The notes under the pieces were generated by a model that saw only the letters and a program-made list of their open reading frames with translations, was not told where the DNA came from and did no database searches. A program made the position numbers and the translations under genes. A stretch of 39,076 nt of DNA from an uncultured bacterium (GTDB lineage Bacteria > Chlamydiota > Chlamydiia > Chlamydiales > JAAZZY01). Below are positions 9,326 through 36,740 of this stretch, one piece after another (the stretch's first letter is position 1; each line of letters begins with the position of its first letter). The stretch is taken from the NCBI GenBank assembly GCA_964351075.1, contig CAYGMF010000006.1, forward strand, positions 1 through 39,076. The letters are read 5' to 3'.

Positions 9326-11807
9326 TGGAAGGCTCTTCAGTGACAGCTATAGCTTCTCCTTCAATAGCCTCTTCTGCCGCAATTTTTTGAATTGCTGATA
9401 TAGTATCTCCTTCGCGAAGATTTGCAAGTTTAACACCTTGCGTTGCTCTTCCCATAACACGCAGGTCATCCATACCAAAGCGGATCGTCTGACCTTGTTT
9501 TGACATCATCAAAACACTTTCTTCATTTTGAATAGAGAGGGCTCCTAGTACAAGACCGTTACGCTCACTTGTGATAATGGATCTAACCCCAACACCACCT
9601 CTATTTGTTTTTCTAAAGTCTTCAACATTTGAGCGCTTTCCAAATCCTTTGTCGCAAACGACTAGGATTTGTTCATCTCCATTGACTACTTCACAAGCAA
9701 TTACAGCATCTTCTTTAGACTTTAAGTTAATCCCTTTAACCCCACGTGCTGTGCGTCCCATAGCGCGCACTTGATCTTCATCAAAACGGATAGCCATACC
9801 CTGCTTTGTAAAAAGCATGATTTGTTGCTCTTTAGTTACTAAGTGAGCATTCATAAGAGAATCATGTTCATCGATGGTGATTGCATAGATTCCTTTACGT
9901 CTTGGATTTGCATACGCTTTAATTTCAGTCTTTTTAACGACTCCATTTACAGTGGATAAAAAGACATAATGATCTTCTATATCAAAGTCTGAAACTTTTA
10001 AAATGGTCGCTATTCTCTCACCTGGTTTAATATCTTCTAGAAGGTTGATAAGAGGTTTTCCTTTAGAGCGCCTTCCAGCTTCAGGAATCTGCCAAACTTT
10101 AATCCAATAGCAACGCCCTAGGCTTGTGAAGACAAGCAGGTGGTCGTGTGTGTTTGCAATGTAGATGCTCTTTAAAGCATCGTGTTCTTTTTTAAGATCA
10201 AATCCAATCACTCCACTACCGCCACGCCTTTGCTCTCTAAAAGTATCCATCGGCATACGTTTGATGTAGTCATCTTGAGAAATCGTTAAGATAACCGGTT
10301 CATTCGGGATCAAGTCTTCAACGTTAAGGTCCCCTTCTGCAGCAATAATTTCAGTACGTCTTGGAGTTTTATCAACACTTCTAACTTGTTCGAGTTCTGT
10401 ACAAATAATGTCATTAACTCTTTGTTCACTAGCTAGAATCTCTTTATAGTCTTTAATCTTCTCTAAAAGCTTTTGGTATTCATTGTTAATTTTTTCCTGC
10501 TCTAGCCCTGTCAACTGGTAGAGTTTAAGATCTAAGACTGCATTTGCTTGTCTCTCAGAGAGATTATAGAATTCCATTAAAGCAGATCTCGCTTCATCTC
10601 TTGAGGATTTAGCTCGAATAATTTTCACCACTTCATCTAAATGATTAAGCGCTATTAAATACCCTTCTAAAATGTGCGCCCTCTCTTCAGCTTTATTCAG
10701 TTCAAAGCGTGTTCTTCGACGAATAACCTCAATACGGTGATCGATCCAAGCCACAATAAACTGTTTGATGTTCATCACTCTTGGAAGCCCCTTATCAAGA
10801 GCAAGCATGATTGCCCCAAAAGTCACTTGAAGGTCAGTGAATTTATAAAGCTGGTTCACAATCACATCGGGCACTTCATTGCGCTTAAGCTCAACGACAA
10901 TTTGAAGCCCTTGCTTATCAGACTCATCTCTGATATCGCTTATTCCTGTGATCACTTTATTATGAATTAGATTCGCGATTTGAGTGATTAATCTCGATTT
11001 ATTCACATTGTAGGGAATCTCAGTAATTACAATAGAAGACCGTTCTCCATCTTTTTCTTCCACTTCAAGTTTAGCTCTTACAGTAAACTTACCGCGACCT
11101 GTGTGGTAAGCCTCTTTAATTCCTCTATAGCCACAGATAACCCCGCCTGTAGGAAAATCAGGACCTGGCATCTCTTGCATGATCTCATCGATAGAAAGAT
11201 CAGGATTTTCGATTAACATTTGTGTAACAGTGACCAACTCCTGCAAATTTTGAGGAGGGATATTTGTTGCCATTCCAACAGCAATTCCTGAAGATCCATT
11301 ACAAAGTAGATTAGGAAACTTAGATGGAAAAACAACCGGCTCTAGCTTGGTTTCATCATAGTTTTGGACAAGATCCACAGTTTCTTTTTCCATATCTTCC
11401 ATTAAGAGAACAGATGGAGCAGTTAAACGAGCTTCCGCATAACGCATAGCAGCAGGAGGGTCTCCATCAACAGACCCAAAATTCCCTTGCCCGTTGACTA
11501 GCATATAGCGCATGCACCACTCTTGGGCCATTCGCACAAGCGTTGGATAAATAACCATTTCACCGTGAGGGTGAAAGTCTCCAGATGTATCCCCACATAT
11601 TTTAGCACACTTACGGTGCTTTCCACCTGGAGCTAAATTTAAAAGCCGCATCGCGTAGAGAATTCTTCTTTGAGAGGGTTTTAGTCCATCACGTACGTCA
11701 GGAAGAGCCCTAGATATGATCACAGACATCGAGTAACGCAAGTAACTCTCTTTCATCTCATCTTCGACATTACGAGGTAGGATATTTCCAATATTATTAG
11801 GTAGCAT
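9312..11807 (-). CDS. gyrA: DNA gyrase subunit A
   Basis: [57 protein letters not shown] (QRDR region) and the active-site region [10 protein letters not shown]. The C-terminal domain has repeated beta-pinwheel blades (..G.GV.G..L). Confidence 0.95.
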
Positions 11808-35339: not shown

Positions 35340-35978
35340 TTAAGAGAGCACTTCTGGCTTATTGTCTACCATCCACTCTCGAAATCGCCCTTCAAAGTCT
35401 TTGAGCGTTTGGCCAAAAATATGGTCTACATTTTTAAACTGCTTAGCTCCTTTAAAGACTAACTTTAGAAATTGATCACCAAGATCTTCTGAGTCTAGCG
35501 CATCTTCGTAACCGTACTTATTGGCAAGTTCGACCCATTTCATCGCTCTATTAAGTGTTGGTAGAGATGGAGCTATAGAGGAGAAGAGATCTTCATTTTG
35601 ATTCTCTCTCTCTTTAGCTTTCGAAGTTTCCCATTGATCTCTGAGTTCTTCCAAAGAAAGCGTTTTTGGATTTTCAAAGACATGTGGAGATCTACGTTTA
35701 ATTTTATCTACGCCCTCACTTGCAATTTGATCAAACTTAAGATCGTGTTCTTTTATAGCTAGAGCTAAGAGAAAAGAGACTGTAAAGAGGAGATCTCCAA
35801 GCTCTTCTTTGACCTTTTGCCCCGTCCCGCTTCTTTGGGCATCTAGAACTTCATAAGCCTCTTCAATCACATAGTGACAGATCGAAGTTATGTCCTGATC
35901 TTTAACCCAAGGACAGCCCCGTGATCCCATCAGAGCTTCTAGAATTTTGAAATATGATTGCAAAGAAAAATTCATCAT
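35340..35978 (-). CDS. mazG: MazG-family nucleoside triphosphate pyrophosphohydrolase
   Basis: CPWVKDQ, the EEAYEVLDA ... EELGDLLF (EExxE...ELGDxL) metal-binding motif, and RSPHVF. Confidence 0.85.
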   Translation of the reverse strand: MMNFSLQSYFKILEALMGSRGCPWVKDQDITSICHYVIEEAYEVLDAQRSGTGQKVKEELGDLLFTVSFLLALAIKEHDLKFDQIASEGVDKIKRRSPHVFENPKTLSLEELRDQWETSKAKERENQNEDLFSSIAPSLPTLNRAMKWVELANKYGYEDALDSEDLGDQFLKLVFKGAKQFKNVDHIFGQTLKDFEGRFREWMVDNKPEVLS

Positions 35979-36072
35979 TTACCTACTTTTTAACGGAGAA
36001 AATTATAGGCAAATGATGAGATTATTTGAACCTCTTTTCGAGGTTTGAATAAGAACTAAAAAATTTAGTATC

Positions 36073-36246
36073 TTACTTACACTGCTTCTGAGGTGCTTTA
36101 TTGCAGCAAGTGTTGCCTCGGGCACATTTTTGCTTGTTACAGCAGTTAGACTTACAGCAATTTGACTTTCCACCTGTCCAGTTTTGACAAGCTGTCGCAG
36201 TAGCTGCTAATGCAAATGTAGCTATAATAAGAGCTAATTTTTTCAT
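36073..36246 (-). CDS. unannotated 57-aa cysteine-rich small lipoprotein (below the ORF-track cutoff)
   Basis: My hand translation gives MKKLALIIATFALAATATA-CQNWTGGKSNCCKSNCCNKQKCARGNTCCNKAPQKQCK. It has a signal peptide, a lipobox-like ATAC, and 9 Cys in the 38-aa mature part. A strong AAGGAG Shine-Dalgarno lies 6 nt upstream of ATG 36246. Confidence 0.55.
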   Translation of the reverse strand: MKKLALIIATFALAATATACQNWTGGKSNCCKSNCCNKQKCARGNTCCNKAPQKQCK

Positions 36247-36451
36247 AATATTCTCCTTAACGAGTATTTTTTTTGAAAATGGTCCCTATCCTATTAGAAT
36301 GGATCTGCCCCTAGATCTAAAGTGAAAACAAATTTAATTCAAGAAATATTTTCGATCTACAAGCTTCTAGCCTTCTCTCTGCAGAGATTGTCTATTAAAA
36401 TACATCCTAGACCTTTATACACAAGTGAATTAGATCTGCAGAAACTTCTAA

Positions 36452-36634
36452 CTACTTTTTATTGCTATTCTTTGAAAAACAGCAACAACAGTCAATACTA
36501 TTGGAACAACAGCTTCCACAGTAACTTGGCCCCCCTCTTTTTTTTGGAGCTGAAGTTTTACTGCTTCCCATCGAGCAACATGAAAGGAGCAGTGCTCCTG
36601 TTACAACGGTTAAGATCATGGCTATTTTTTTCAT
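36452..36634 (-). CDS. 60-aa cysteine-rich small lipoprotein
   Basis: MKKIAMILTVVTGALLLS-CCSMGSSKTSAPKKRGGPSYCGSCCSNSIDCCCCFSKNSNKK. It has a signal peptide with lipobox LLSC and 10 Cys in the mature part, counting the lipobox Cys. A GAGGTG Shine-Dalgarno lies 7 nt upstream. Confidence 0.6.
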   Translation of the reverse strand: MKKIAMILTVVTGALLLSCCSMGSSKTSAPKKRGGPSYCGSCCSNSIDCCCCFSKNSNKK

Positions 36635-36740
36635 CTAAGTGCACCTCTATTTAAGTTTAGGTAAAAAAAATATTTATACCTGAAGCTACAGATTTTAGGC
36701 TACAGACATAGTAGCCACCTTTAGGCATATTTTTTATGAT

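Follow-up and report, generated by a model that had tools for sequence, protein, structure and literature searches.

Two small, unannotated cysteine-rich lipoprotein genes of an uncultured chlamydia: OmcA-like design and a possible role in the envelope

Disulfide-linked networks of OmcA, OmcB, and porins are held to stabilize chlamydial elementary bodies (PMC3561449, PMC2878342, PMC6490308). The locus considered here raises the question whether small cysteine-rich lipoproteins encoded apart from any omcB gene belong to this system, represent something else, or are genes at all. The analyzed stretch, below called the window, comprises 39,076 nucleotides (nt), i.e., positions 1–39,076 of contig CAYGMF010000006.1 from the assembly GCA_964351075.1 of an uncultured member of Chlamydiales (1.52 Mb, 96.5% complete). 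It carries two adjacent open reading frames (ORFs) on the minus strand, ORF A and ORF B. Judging from their conservation, these are two real, conserved, and independent small genes; by sequence comparison they are not members of the OmcA family and are OmcA-like in design. Their products may act as disulfide staples of the envelope, a reading that is weighed below against metal binding and other functions.

The two genes, with lengths in amino acids (aa) and with their Shine-Dalgarno sequences, are as follows:

36452..36634, minus strand: ORF A, predicted 60-aa precursor of a small cysteine-rich lipoprotein, with a signal peptide at residues 1–18 and the lipobox LLSC, Cys19

36642..36647, minus strand: Shine-Dalgarno sequence of ORF A, GAGGTG, 7 nt 5' of the ATG

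36073..36246, minus strand: ORF B, predicted 57-aa precursor of a small basic cysteine-rich lipoprotein, with the lipobox ATAC, Cys20

36253..36258, minus strand: Shine-Dalgarno sequence of ORF B, AAGGAG, 6 nt 5' of the ATG

The translation of ORF A is MKKIAMILTVVTGALLLSC followed by CSMGSSKTSAPKKRGGPSYCGSCCSNSIDCCCCFSKNSNKK, with predicted cleavage between the two parts, before Cys19; the mature peptide has 42 residues, 9 of them Cys (21%), a net charge of +6, and the C-terminal end CCCCFSKNSNKK. ORF B translates to MKKLALIIATFALAATATAC followed by QNWTGGKSNCCKSNCCNKQKCARGNTCCNKAPQKQCK, with cleavage predicted before Cys20, which leaves a mature peptide of 38 residues with 9 Cys (24%) and a net charge of +8. 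Both precursors start with MKK, followed by a hydrophobic stretch and the lipobox, and both satisfy the PROSITE lipobox rule PS51257, whose test includes Lys or Arg within the first 7 residues, at Cys19 and Cys20, respectively. Coordinates, motifs, and PS51257 thus agree with the initial annotation, which had proposed two minus-strand genes with a Shine-Dalgarno sequence, signal peptide, and lipobox cysteine; the clusters CC, CCxxxCC, and CCCC that it described are present in the mature peptides, and its count of 9–10 cysteines is corrected to nine in each.

This combination of features is rare in the genome. Among 1935 six-frame ORFs of 50–80 aa, 14 satisfy the lipobox rule and 5 contain 9 or more Cys; the only ones that show both are ORF A and ORF B, adjacent and on the same strand (2 observed vs. 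0.036 expected). By cysteine fraction, ORF B ranks first and ORF A third among the ORFs of this size.

Conservation was assessed in the GTDB family of the source organism, denoted f1 (nine species genomes of 1.4–2.5 Mb, with G000 for the source genome and G001 for the sister species), and in Joint Genome Institute (JGI) metagenomes from an Antarctic lake, where close relatives occur at 83% protein identity; all absences given here and below hold for the genomes searched, at Pfam or BLAST sensitivity. Single-sequence and profile searches found exactly one ORF B orthologue in eight of the nine f1 genomes, and 241 genomes from the rest of the order yielded none; the sole outside match to the profile covers only a signal peptide within a 315-aa frame, and was discounted. 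A scan of genome contigs with three ORF B-family sequences returned the sister species alone, and a metagenome pattern scan yielded one false positive, a signal-peptide-only match in DNA of high GC content.

Nine sequences of the ORF B family (from the eight genomes and one Antarctic-lake metagenome) could be compared. They are 54–63 aa long. The lipobox is canonical in all nine, its Cys being residue 20, and in most cases x-[NS]-W-[GT]-G comes next; Trp is found three residues past this Cys in eight of the nine. The tails have 35–44 residues with 6–13 cysteines (15–30% Cys), 17–31% Lys/Arg, and a net charge of +5 to +13; they are rich in Ser and Asn, poor in proline, acidic, and aromatic residues, and contain CC, CxC, and CxxxC motifs. 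Beyond the signal peptide and the lipobox Cys, a single CC pair is invariant, and the last residue differs among members (K, K, R, H, N, S, R, R, R). As judged from these nine sequences, the make-up of the tails is conserved and the cysteine spacing is not. AlphaFold2 gives no confident fold for ORF B, with a predicted local distance difference test (pLDDT) score of 52 and a predicted template modeling (pTM) score of 0.22. Taken together, the searches and the alignment make ORF B the founder of a new, family-restricted family of basic cysteine-rich mini-lipoproteins. A 49-aa lipoprotein-like ORF of similar design (basic, Asn/Lys-rich, with CxxC motifs), MKKFLTLAIFALASAGLVSCANGQMNKKNNSKSQNCDKCDKCSKNGKNR, is seen at L024 1486-1635 in G040, a genome from another chlamydial family; it falls below the profile threshold.

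The surroundings of the ORF B gene are conserved as well:

36314..36342, minus strand: putative promoter of ORF B, TTGAAT (36342..36337), 17-nt spacer, TAGATC (36319..36314)

36029..36045, minus strand: terminator-like hairpin AACCUCGAAAAGAGGUU, 3' of ORF B, fold z-score -3.55

35340..35978, minus strand: mazG (nucleoside triphosphate pyrophosphohydrolase; PF03819, E 1.6e-18), which adjoins ORF B downstream

The AAGGAG sequence 5' of the ATG is kept in all nine family members, and a hairpin follows the stop codon in every one, with a T7 run after it in most genera. A TTGAA(A/T) box lies upstream in most members (G008, with no upstream DNA, was left out), and the full arrangement TTGAA(A/T)-N17-TA(G/A)ATC is kept in G000, G001, G005, and the Antarctic-lake contigs; in the window these promoter-like boxes are not listed by a consensus promoter scanner, because the second hexamer ends in C. 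The ORF B gene lies directly upstream of mazG in G000, G001, G002, G004, G005, and the Antarctic-lake contigs L001, L002, and L003 (the last one short). Compared by eye (window 36247-36360 vs. L001–L003 and L028), the approximately 110 nt 5' of ORF B, which contain the promoter-like boxes and a leader including GGATAGGGACCATTTTCAAAAAA, seem better conserved within the genus than the coding sequence. Between ORF B and its Antarctic-lake orthologue, 14 of the 23 nucleotide differences fall at third codon positions, and the ratio of nonsynonymous to synonymous substitution rates (dN/dS) is 0.17.

ORF A has a sparser record. No orthologue was found by a word-index search, in 40 relatives, or by a metagenome pattern scan, and no ORF A-type gene was found outside the source genus. 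An exhaustive HMMER search did retrieve one intact orthologue, P0003, a 57-aa sequence, MKKTILILSVFTGAFLLSNCSMPAKHRPTAQKRGSGSSANCCSNTCCCCFSKNSSKK, that is 60% identical to ORF A (E 3e-8); its gene lies at the end of the Antarctic-lake contig L061, with GAGGT at the same distance from the ATG as in ORF A. The dN/dS ratio between the two is about 0.11, with dS saturated. The proposal that both ORFs are genuine small lipoprotein genes with cysteine-rich tails is thus borne out by conservation in related genomes and by low dN/dS (0.17 and about 0.11). The lipobox of P0003, LSNC, is atypical and fails PS51257.

In the sample that yielded P0003, another contig starts 255 nt 5' of the ORF B orthologue; the two Antarctic-lake contig ends have a 27-nt inverted match in common, and a third contig carries a transposase there. 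Given this shared match and the transposase, ORF A and ORF B are probably neighbors split by an insertion sequence in the Antarctic-lake organism. In that population, a DDE transposase (PF13737) is located at L002 15-299, between the orthologues of ORF A and ORF B, and all contigs break at the transposase spot (end of L061, starts of L001 and L003).

Two further features bear on the stability of ORF A:

36530..36545, minus strand: A8-G-A-G6 homopolymer stretch within ORF A, codons for PKKRGG

L028 2576-2790 (sister species G001, JAJACV010000006): split ORF A-type copy, in the same slot and in two frames

The homopolymer stretch is a possible slipped-strand site; it is not kept in the Antarctic-lake orthologue gene. 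The split copy of the sister species consists of a 44-aa fragment with signal and lipobox, followed by a CCCCFSHNS tail in another frame; the other-frame piece, ...NDSCCCCFSHNSQLYC, compares with IDCCCCFSKNS of ORF A, and A-runs of 7–8 bases (A7, A8) lie near the frame break. A pseudogene, an error of assembly, and slippage are all conceivable explanations. By comparison of the two phylogenetic records, ORF A appears younger and less stable than ORF B; the LSNC lipobox of the orthologue together with the split copy makes it seem dispensable. Only the signal peptides of ORF A and ORF B align with each other, and the ORF B profile does not match ORF A; hence, common descent of the two tails is unproven.

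The opposite strand carries a longer frame:

36322..36654, plus strand: antisense ORF, 110 aa, GTG start, no Shine-Dalgarno sequence; shadow ORF

It has no family match and no relative in the related loci, and all three antisense frames are interrupted by stops at L061, the locus orthologous to ORF A. By these comparisons it is a shadow ORF rather than a gene, as had been suspected. The further suggestion that pipelines would call it instead of the small gene did not hold, since a collection of 15 billion proteins contains none of the three (ORF A, ORF B, the antisense ORF), while it does contain a neighboring 140-aa ORF; annotation has therefore missed the two real genes. For ORF A and ORF B alike, log-odds of codon usage are close to zero or below it (0.0 for ORF B). 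This score is uninformative here, because cysteine codons are penalized, and even the well-conserved ORF B scores 0. An Rfam scan of the region gave chance-level matches only, and in RNA folding the ORF B leader and the spacer between ORF A and ORF B were no different from shuffled sequences.

The idea that the two genes encode extra OmcA proteins was addressed by alignment to OmcA, and is not supported. The Pfam model PF03503 (Chlam_OMP3, OmcA; 25-bit cut-off) matches neither ORF A nor ORF B, even at E up to 1, and six-frame searches with it found nothing in the source genome or in 40 relatives. In a control on 200 genomes of the class, the model matched 25 of the 28 Chlamydiaceae genomes (recognized by PF03503 and major outer membrane protein (MOMP) matches in genomes of 1.0–1.3 Mb, and belonging to the same GTDB order as the source) and no other family; its scope is therefore limited to the OmcA of Chlamydiaceae. 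When both peptides were scanned against Pfam and NCBIfam, weak signal-peptide similarity was all that appeared. When ORF A or the ORF B family was compared by profile (hhalign) with true OmcA from Chlamydiaceae loci, residues 1–20, i.e., the signal peptide only, aligned, and no homology to OmcA was found for either mature peptide.

The likeness is one of design. OmcA of Chlamydiaceae (CrpA/EnvA, the 9-kDa protein) and the two ORF products have in common an MKK-type Sec signal with a lipobox, a chlamydial host, a presumed envelope location, and a very small mature peptide with 17–30% cysteine (17–20% in Chlamydiaceae OmcA itself); the LSxCC junction of ORF A is matched by LSSCC of OmcA. The mature peptides differ in length (38–42 residues vs. 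about 70 in OmcA) and in make-up: OmcA is near neutral and Pro/Asp-rich (10% proline), whereas the ORF A and ORF B products are strongly basic and Lys/Asn/Ser-rich, with at most 5% proline. The OmcA gene normally accompanies omcB, whereas ORF A and ORF B have no omcB nearby or anywhere in f1.

The lack of linkage to omcB, noted initially for this locus, extends much further. OmcB (PF03504) is found neither in the window nor in the source genome nor in any of the nine f1 genomes, and an environmental OmcB used as the query gave no match in f1; the same model finds OmcB in genomes of 11 of 32 other families sampled. MOMP (PF01308) was not found in f1 either, by a search with a working control. 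The missing linkage is thus no local oddity, as the whole family has no detectable OmcB or MOMP. Elsewhere in the phylum, Simkania and Rhabdochlamydia are listed as having no OmcA or OmcB (PMC6490308).

In three environmental chlamydiae, G032, G037, and G039, small lipoproteins with 26–37% Cys adjoin omcB (loci L031, L029, and L030, respectively). These Cys/Pro-rich proteins have 63–151 aa, form a tandem pair in G039, and are not matched by PF03503. Such omcB-adjacent small Cys/Pro-rich lipoproteins of environmental chlamydiae are annotated as OmcA, e.g., pc0617 of Protochlamydia amoebophila. Since PF03503 misses them, what marks the OmcA kind in families other than Chlamydiaceae is architecture and make-up together with linkage to omcB. 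ORF A and ORF B resemble them in the signal peptide, lipobox, cysteine-rich tail, fast evolution, and possible tandem pairing. The omcB-adjacent lipoproteins, however, have 17–30% proline, contain Asp, carry a net charge of about -4 to +3 (vs. +6 and +8), and in the loci read always lie directly beside omcB, whereas ORF A and ORF B lie beside mazG.

If not OmcA, what might these peptides do? The source genome encodes both Lgt (E 8e-51) and LspA (E 5e-30), and ORF A as well as all nine ORF B-family members pass PS51257, as expected of bacterial lipoproteins cleaved by signal peptidase II (SPII). A third small cysteine-rich lipoprotein gene is found on contig C16 (L063 1210-1538); its signal peptide, MKKMVLFLFILTGAFMFYSC, resembles that of ORF A, and its tail, SLIQKAKPAEQKVVGCICECIEACMCEADCICKCNAE, is acidic and CxC-rich, with the CxC run CICECIEACMCEADCICKC. 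A 100-N scaffold gap in this paralogue looks like an assembly artefact, because its flanks repeat the same 17 residues. Cysteine-rich ends are generally enriched on lipoproteins of this genome: at least 4 Cys within the last 30 residues are seen in 5 of 27 lipobox ORFs vs. 7 of 1221 other ORFs (Fisher p = 2e-6). Larger predicted lipoproteins with cysteine-cluster tails are:

C29 about 8706, minus strand: 127 aa, with the tail NCSTCCQSNNCCGKKVNCKSKKNC, which resembles the ORF B family

C46:10291-10767 and 10897-11376: two paralogues

C8:11321-11893 and C49:8880-9917: one lipoprotein each

Example tails from C46, C8, and C49 are ...ACVIPCACGC, ...SCLVPCLCPC, ...CLPCGCSDPSCHSPNSCD, and ...CAYNCCTNNYCQDYTCCTYQCGCNYQCG. 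Those scanned against Pfam (one C46 paralogue, C8, and the N-terminal part of C49) gave no match. Being enriched on several lipoproteins, the cysteine-cluster tail looks like a lipoprotein-attached module in the source organism, and ORF A and ORF B would be its minimal form, an anchor plus a tail.

The reading that we favor, at about an even chance, is that ORF A and ORF B encode SPII lipoproteins that staple the envelope together by disulfide bonds, as functional analogues of OmcA and not its homologues. After export through Sec, Lgt would add lipid to the lipobox Cys and SPII would cleave the precursor; the remaining unstructured basic tail of 38–42 residues, with 8 further cysteines, would stay anchored in one of the membranes of the chlamydial envelope. 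The tails would form intermolecular disulfides with other cysteine-bearing envelope proteins, for which the Cys-cluster-tailed lipoproteins of the same genome are candidates, and would thus lend rigidity to the envelope in the infectious stage, the part ascribed to OmcA in Chlamydiaceae. Lipidation, location, cross-linking, and expression timing are all what we infer from sequence. A cross-linking tail fits better than a defined fold, as the spacing of the cysteines varies and structure prediction gives no confident fold, and the presence of the same tail module on several lipoproteins supports cross-linking. A 449-aa membrane protein with a VKOR domain containing CxxC, plus SPW repeats (contig C2:34281-35630, minus strand), may be the disulfide-generating enzyme of the organism. 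Disulfide-linked envelopes are, moreover, a general chlamydial habit (PMC3561449, PMC2878342), which we count in favor of a cross-linker. The third small paralogue and the like architecture of the small lipoproteins beside omcB in other environmental chlamydiae point the same way.

Several observations weigh against staples of this kind. Neither DsbA nor DsbB has a Pfam match in the source genome; the mature peptides lack detectable homology to OmcA, and the potential partners OmcB and MOMP were not found in f1. The ORF A lineage includes the LSNC lipobox of P0003 and the split sister-species copy, which suggest a dispensable gene. The make-up rich in Cys, Lys, Ser, and Asn, the CC and CxC motifs, and the scarcity of aromatic residues are also metallothionein-like, and a disulfide does not form readily between vicinal cysteines.

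The closest competitor, which we consider unlikely though a serious alternative, is that ORF A and ORF B encode lipid-anchored metallothionein-like peptides, whose reduced thiolates act in the periplasm as ligands of Zn(II), Cu(I), or Cd(II) and so buffer or scavenge metals. Cross-linking and metal binding were the two functions proposed at the outset, and they stay the two leading ones. The make-up of the ORF B family (15–30% Cys, 17–31% Lys/Arg, Ser/Asn-rich, CC/CxC/CxxxC, few aromatic or acidic residues) fits a metallothionein equally well, such composition being a metallothionein signature; the one departure in aromatic residues is the Trp near the lipobox in eight of the nine members. Metallothioneins (eukaryotic MT; SmtA/BmtA, PF02069; MymT) resemble ORF A and ORF B in size, cysteine fraction, motifs, Lys/Ser/Asn abundance, and scarce aromatics. 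They also evolve by make-up rather than by fixed positions, the third paralogue has its CxC run, and the lack of a match to DsbA or DsbB might allow the thiols to remain reduced. On the other side, no Pfam metallothionein family matches either ORF at E up to 1, and Protein Data Bank (PDB) sequence searches at E up to 10 gave no metallothionein or other cysteine-rich protein (the ORF A profile yielded three chance-level matches, E >=1, to unrelated proteins). The bacterial metallothioneins known to us (SmtA/BmtA, MymT) are cytosolic and have no signal peptide, unlike the exported and lipid-anchored products predicted here. The conserved neighbor is mazG, with no metal transporter or metal regulator as a conserved neighbor; a VKOR-type oxidant is encoded in the genome; and the same tail type on several larger unrelated lipoproteins suits a docking or cross-linking module better. 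Less probable still, in our view, is a more specific version that takes the two ORF products and the CxC-rich third paralogue for periplasmic metallothioneins with a lipid anchor, serving to capture Zn or Cu in the envelope or to buffer these metals there; if it were true, exported, membrane-tethered metal–thiolate peptides would be a class not described in bacteria, found here in an obligate intracellular chlamydia.

Another periplasmic role is doubtful, be it a sacrificial thiol or redox buffer or a peptidoglycan tether like Lpp, attached via a C-terminal basic residue. For a thiol buffer we know of no precedent. The tether is suggested by gene organization, as small monocistronic genes with a strong Shine-Dalgarno sequence, their own terminator hairpin, and mostly a TTGAA(A/T) box recall lpp, and many ORF B-family members end in Lys or Arg. 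Lpp of Enterobacteria and the ORF A and ORF B products are alike as tiny monocistronic lipoproteins with a strong ribosome-binding site and their own terminator hairpin, and as presumed envelope staples. Lpp, however, is a cysteine-free coiled coil linked by a conserved C-terminal Lys to peptidoglycan, whereas ORF A and ORF B have no coiled coil, and the C-terminal residue is not conserved across the nine ORF B-family members. Membership in the Braun lipoprotein family (PF04728) was accordingly rejected, there being no Pfam match and a variable C-terminal residue.

Fainter again is the prospect that the products are surface-exposed cationic peptides, either adhesins for anionic host glycans or defensin-like antimicrobials. 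The basic motif of OmcB binds heparan sulfate, and a net charge of +5 to +13 on 35–44 residues with 6–13 cysteines corresponds to the size and charge of cationic cysteine-rich peptides; the strong ribosome-binding site and the terminator hairpin would be compatible with an abundant product. Unlike in defensin or knottin folds, however, cysteine positions vary between genera, the fact that every one of the nine ORF B-family members has a canonical lipobox argues for a tethered rather than released peptide, and there are no immunity or export genes nearby. Defensin-like or knottin membership was rejected, with only the lipobox Cys and one CC pair invariant and the low pLDDT and pTM given above. 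A precursor of a ribosomally synthesized and post-translationally modified peptide or bacteriocin was likewise rejected, because the leader is a hydrophobic SPII signal of the classical kind and neither a maturase nor a transporter is encoded nearby. Finally, that ORF A and/or ORF B are chance frames or non-coding, and the plus-strand 110-aa ORF the real gene, is very improbable: the absence of both from public annotation, their near-zero or negative codon-usage log-odds, and the single intact orthologue of ORF A speak for it, and purifying selection in the proposed frames, the conserved lipobox, Shine-Dalgarno sequences, and terminators, the excess over chance expectation, and the closed antisense frames at the orthologous locus speak against it.

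Upstream of ORF A, the window also encodes a 478-aa protein (37412-38848, minus strand) with C-terminal ankyrin repeats by Pfam; its N-terminal half shows a RING-like pattern, CPIC...HxxH...C...CPTC, for which Pfam gave no match at E up to 0.001. Between this gene and ORF A lies the publicly annotated 140-aa ORF (36741..37163); it has no family, and the loci read contain no relative.

In chlamydiae, the place of a rigid sacculus is held to be taken by a disulfide-linked shell of OmcA, OmcB, and cysteine-rich porins. Lineages listed as having no OmcA or OmcB, i.e., Simkania and Rhabdochlamydia (PMC6490308), raise the question of how their infectious stage is stabilized. Since PF03503 detects OmcA in Chlamydiaceae only, reports of OmcA absence outside this family say little; genes of fewer than 60 codons with extreme make-up escape annotation. 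The family f1 has no detectable OmcA, OmcB, or MOMP, yet it encodes a conserved, unannotated mini-lipoprotein that is about one-quarter cysteine, along with larger lipoproteins bearing cysteine-cluster tails. This pattern points to a lipoprotein-based alternative network, or to metal handling in the envelope.

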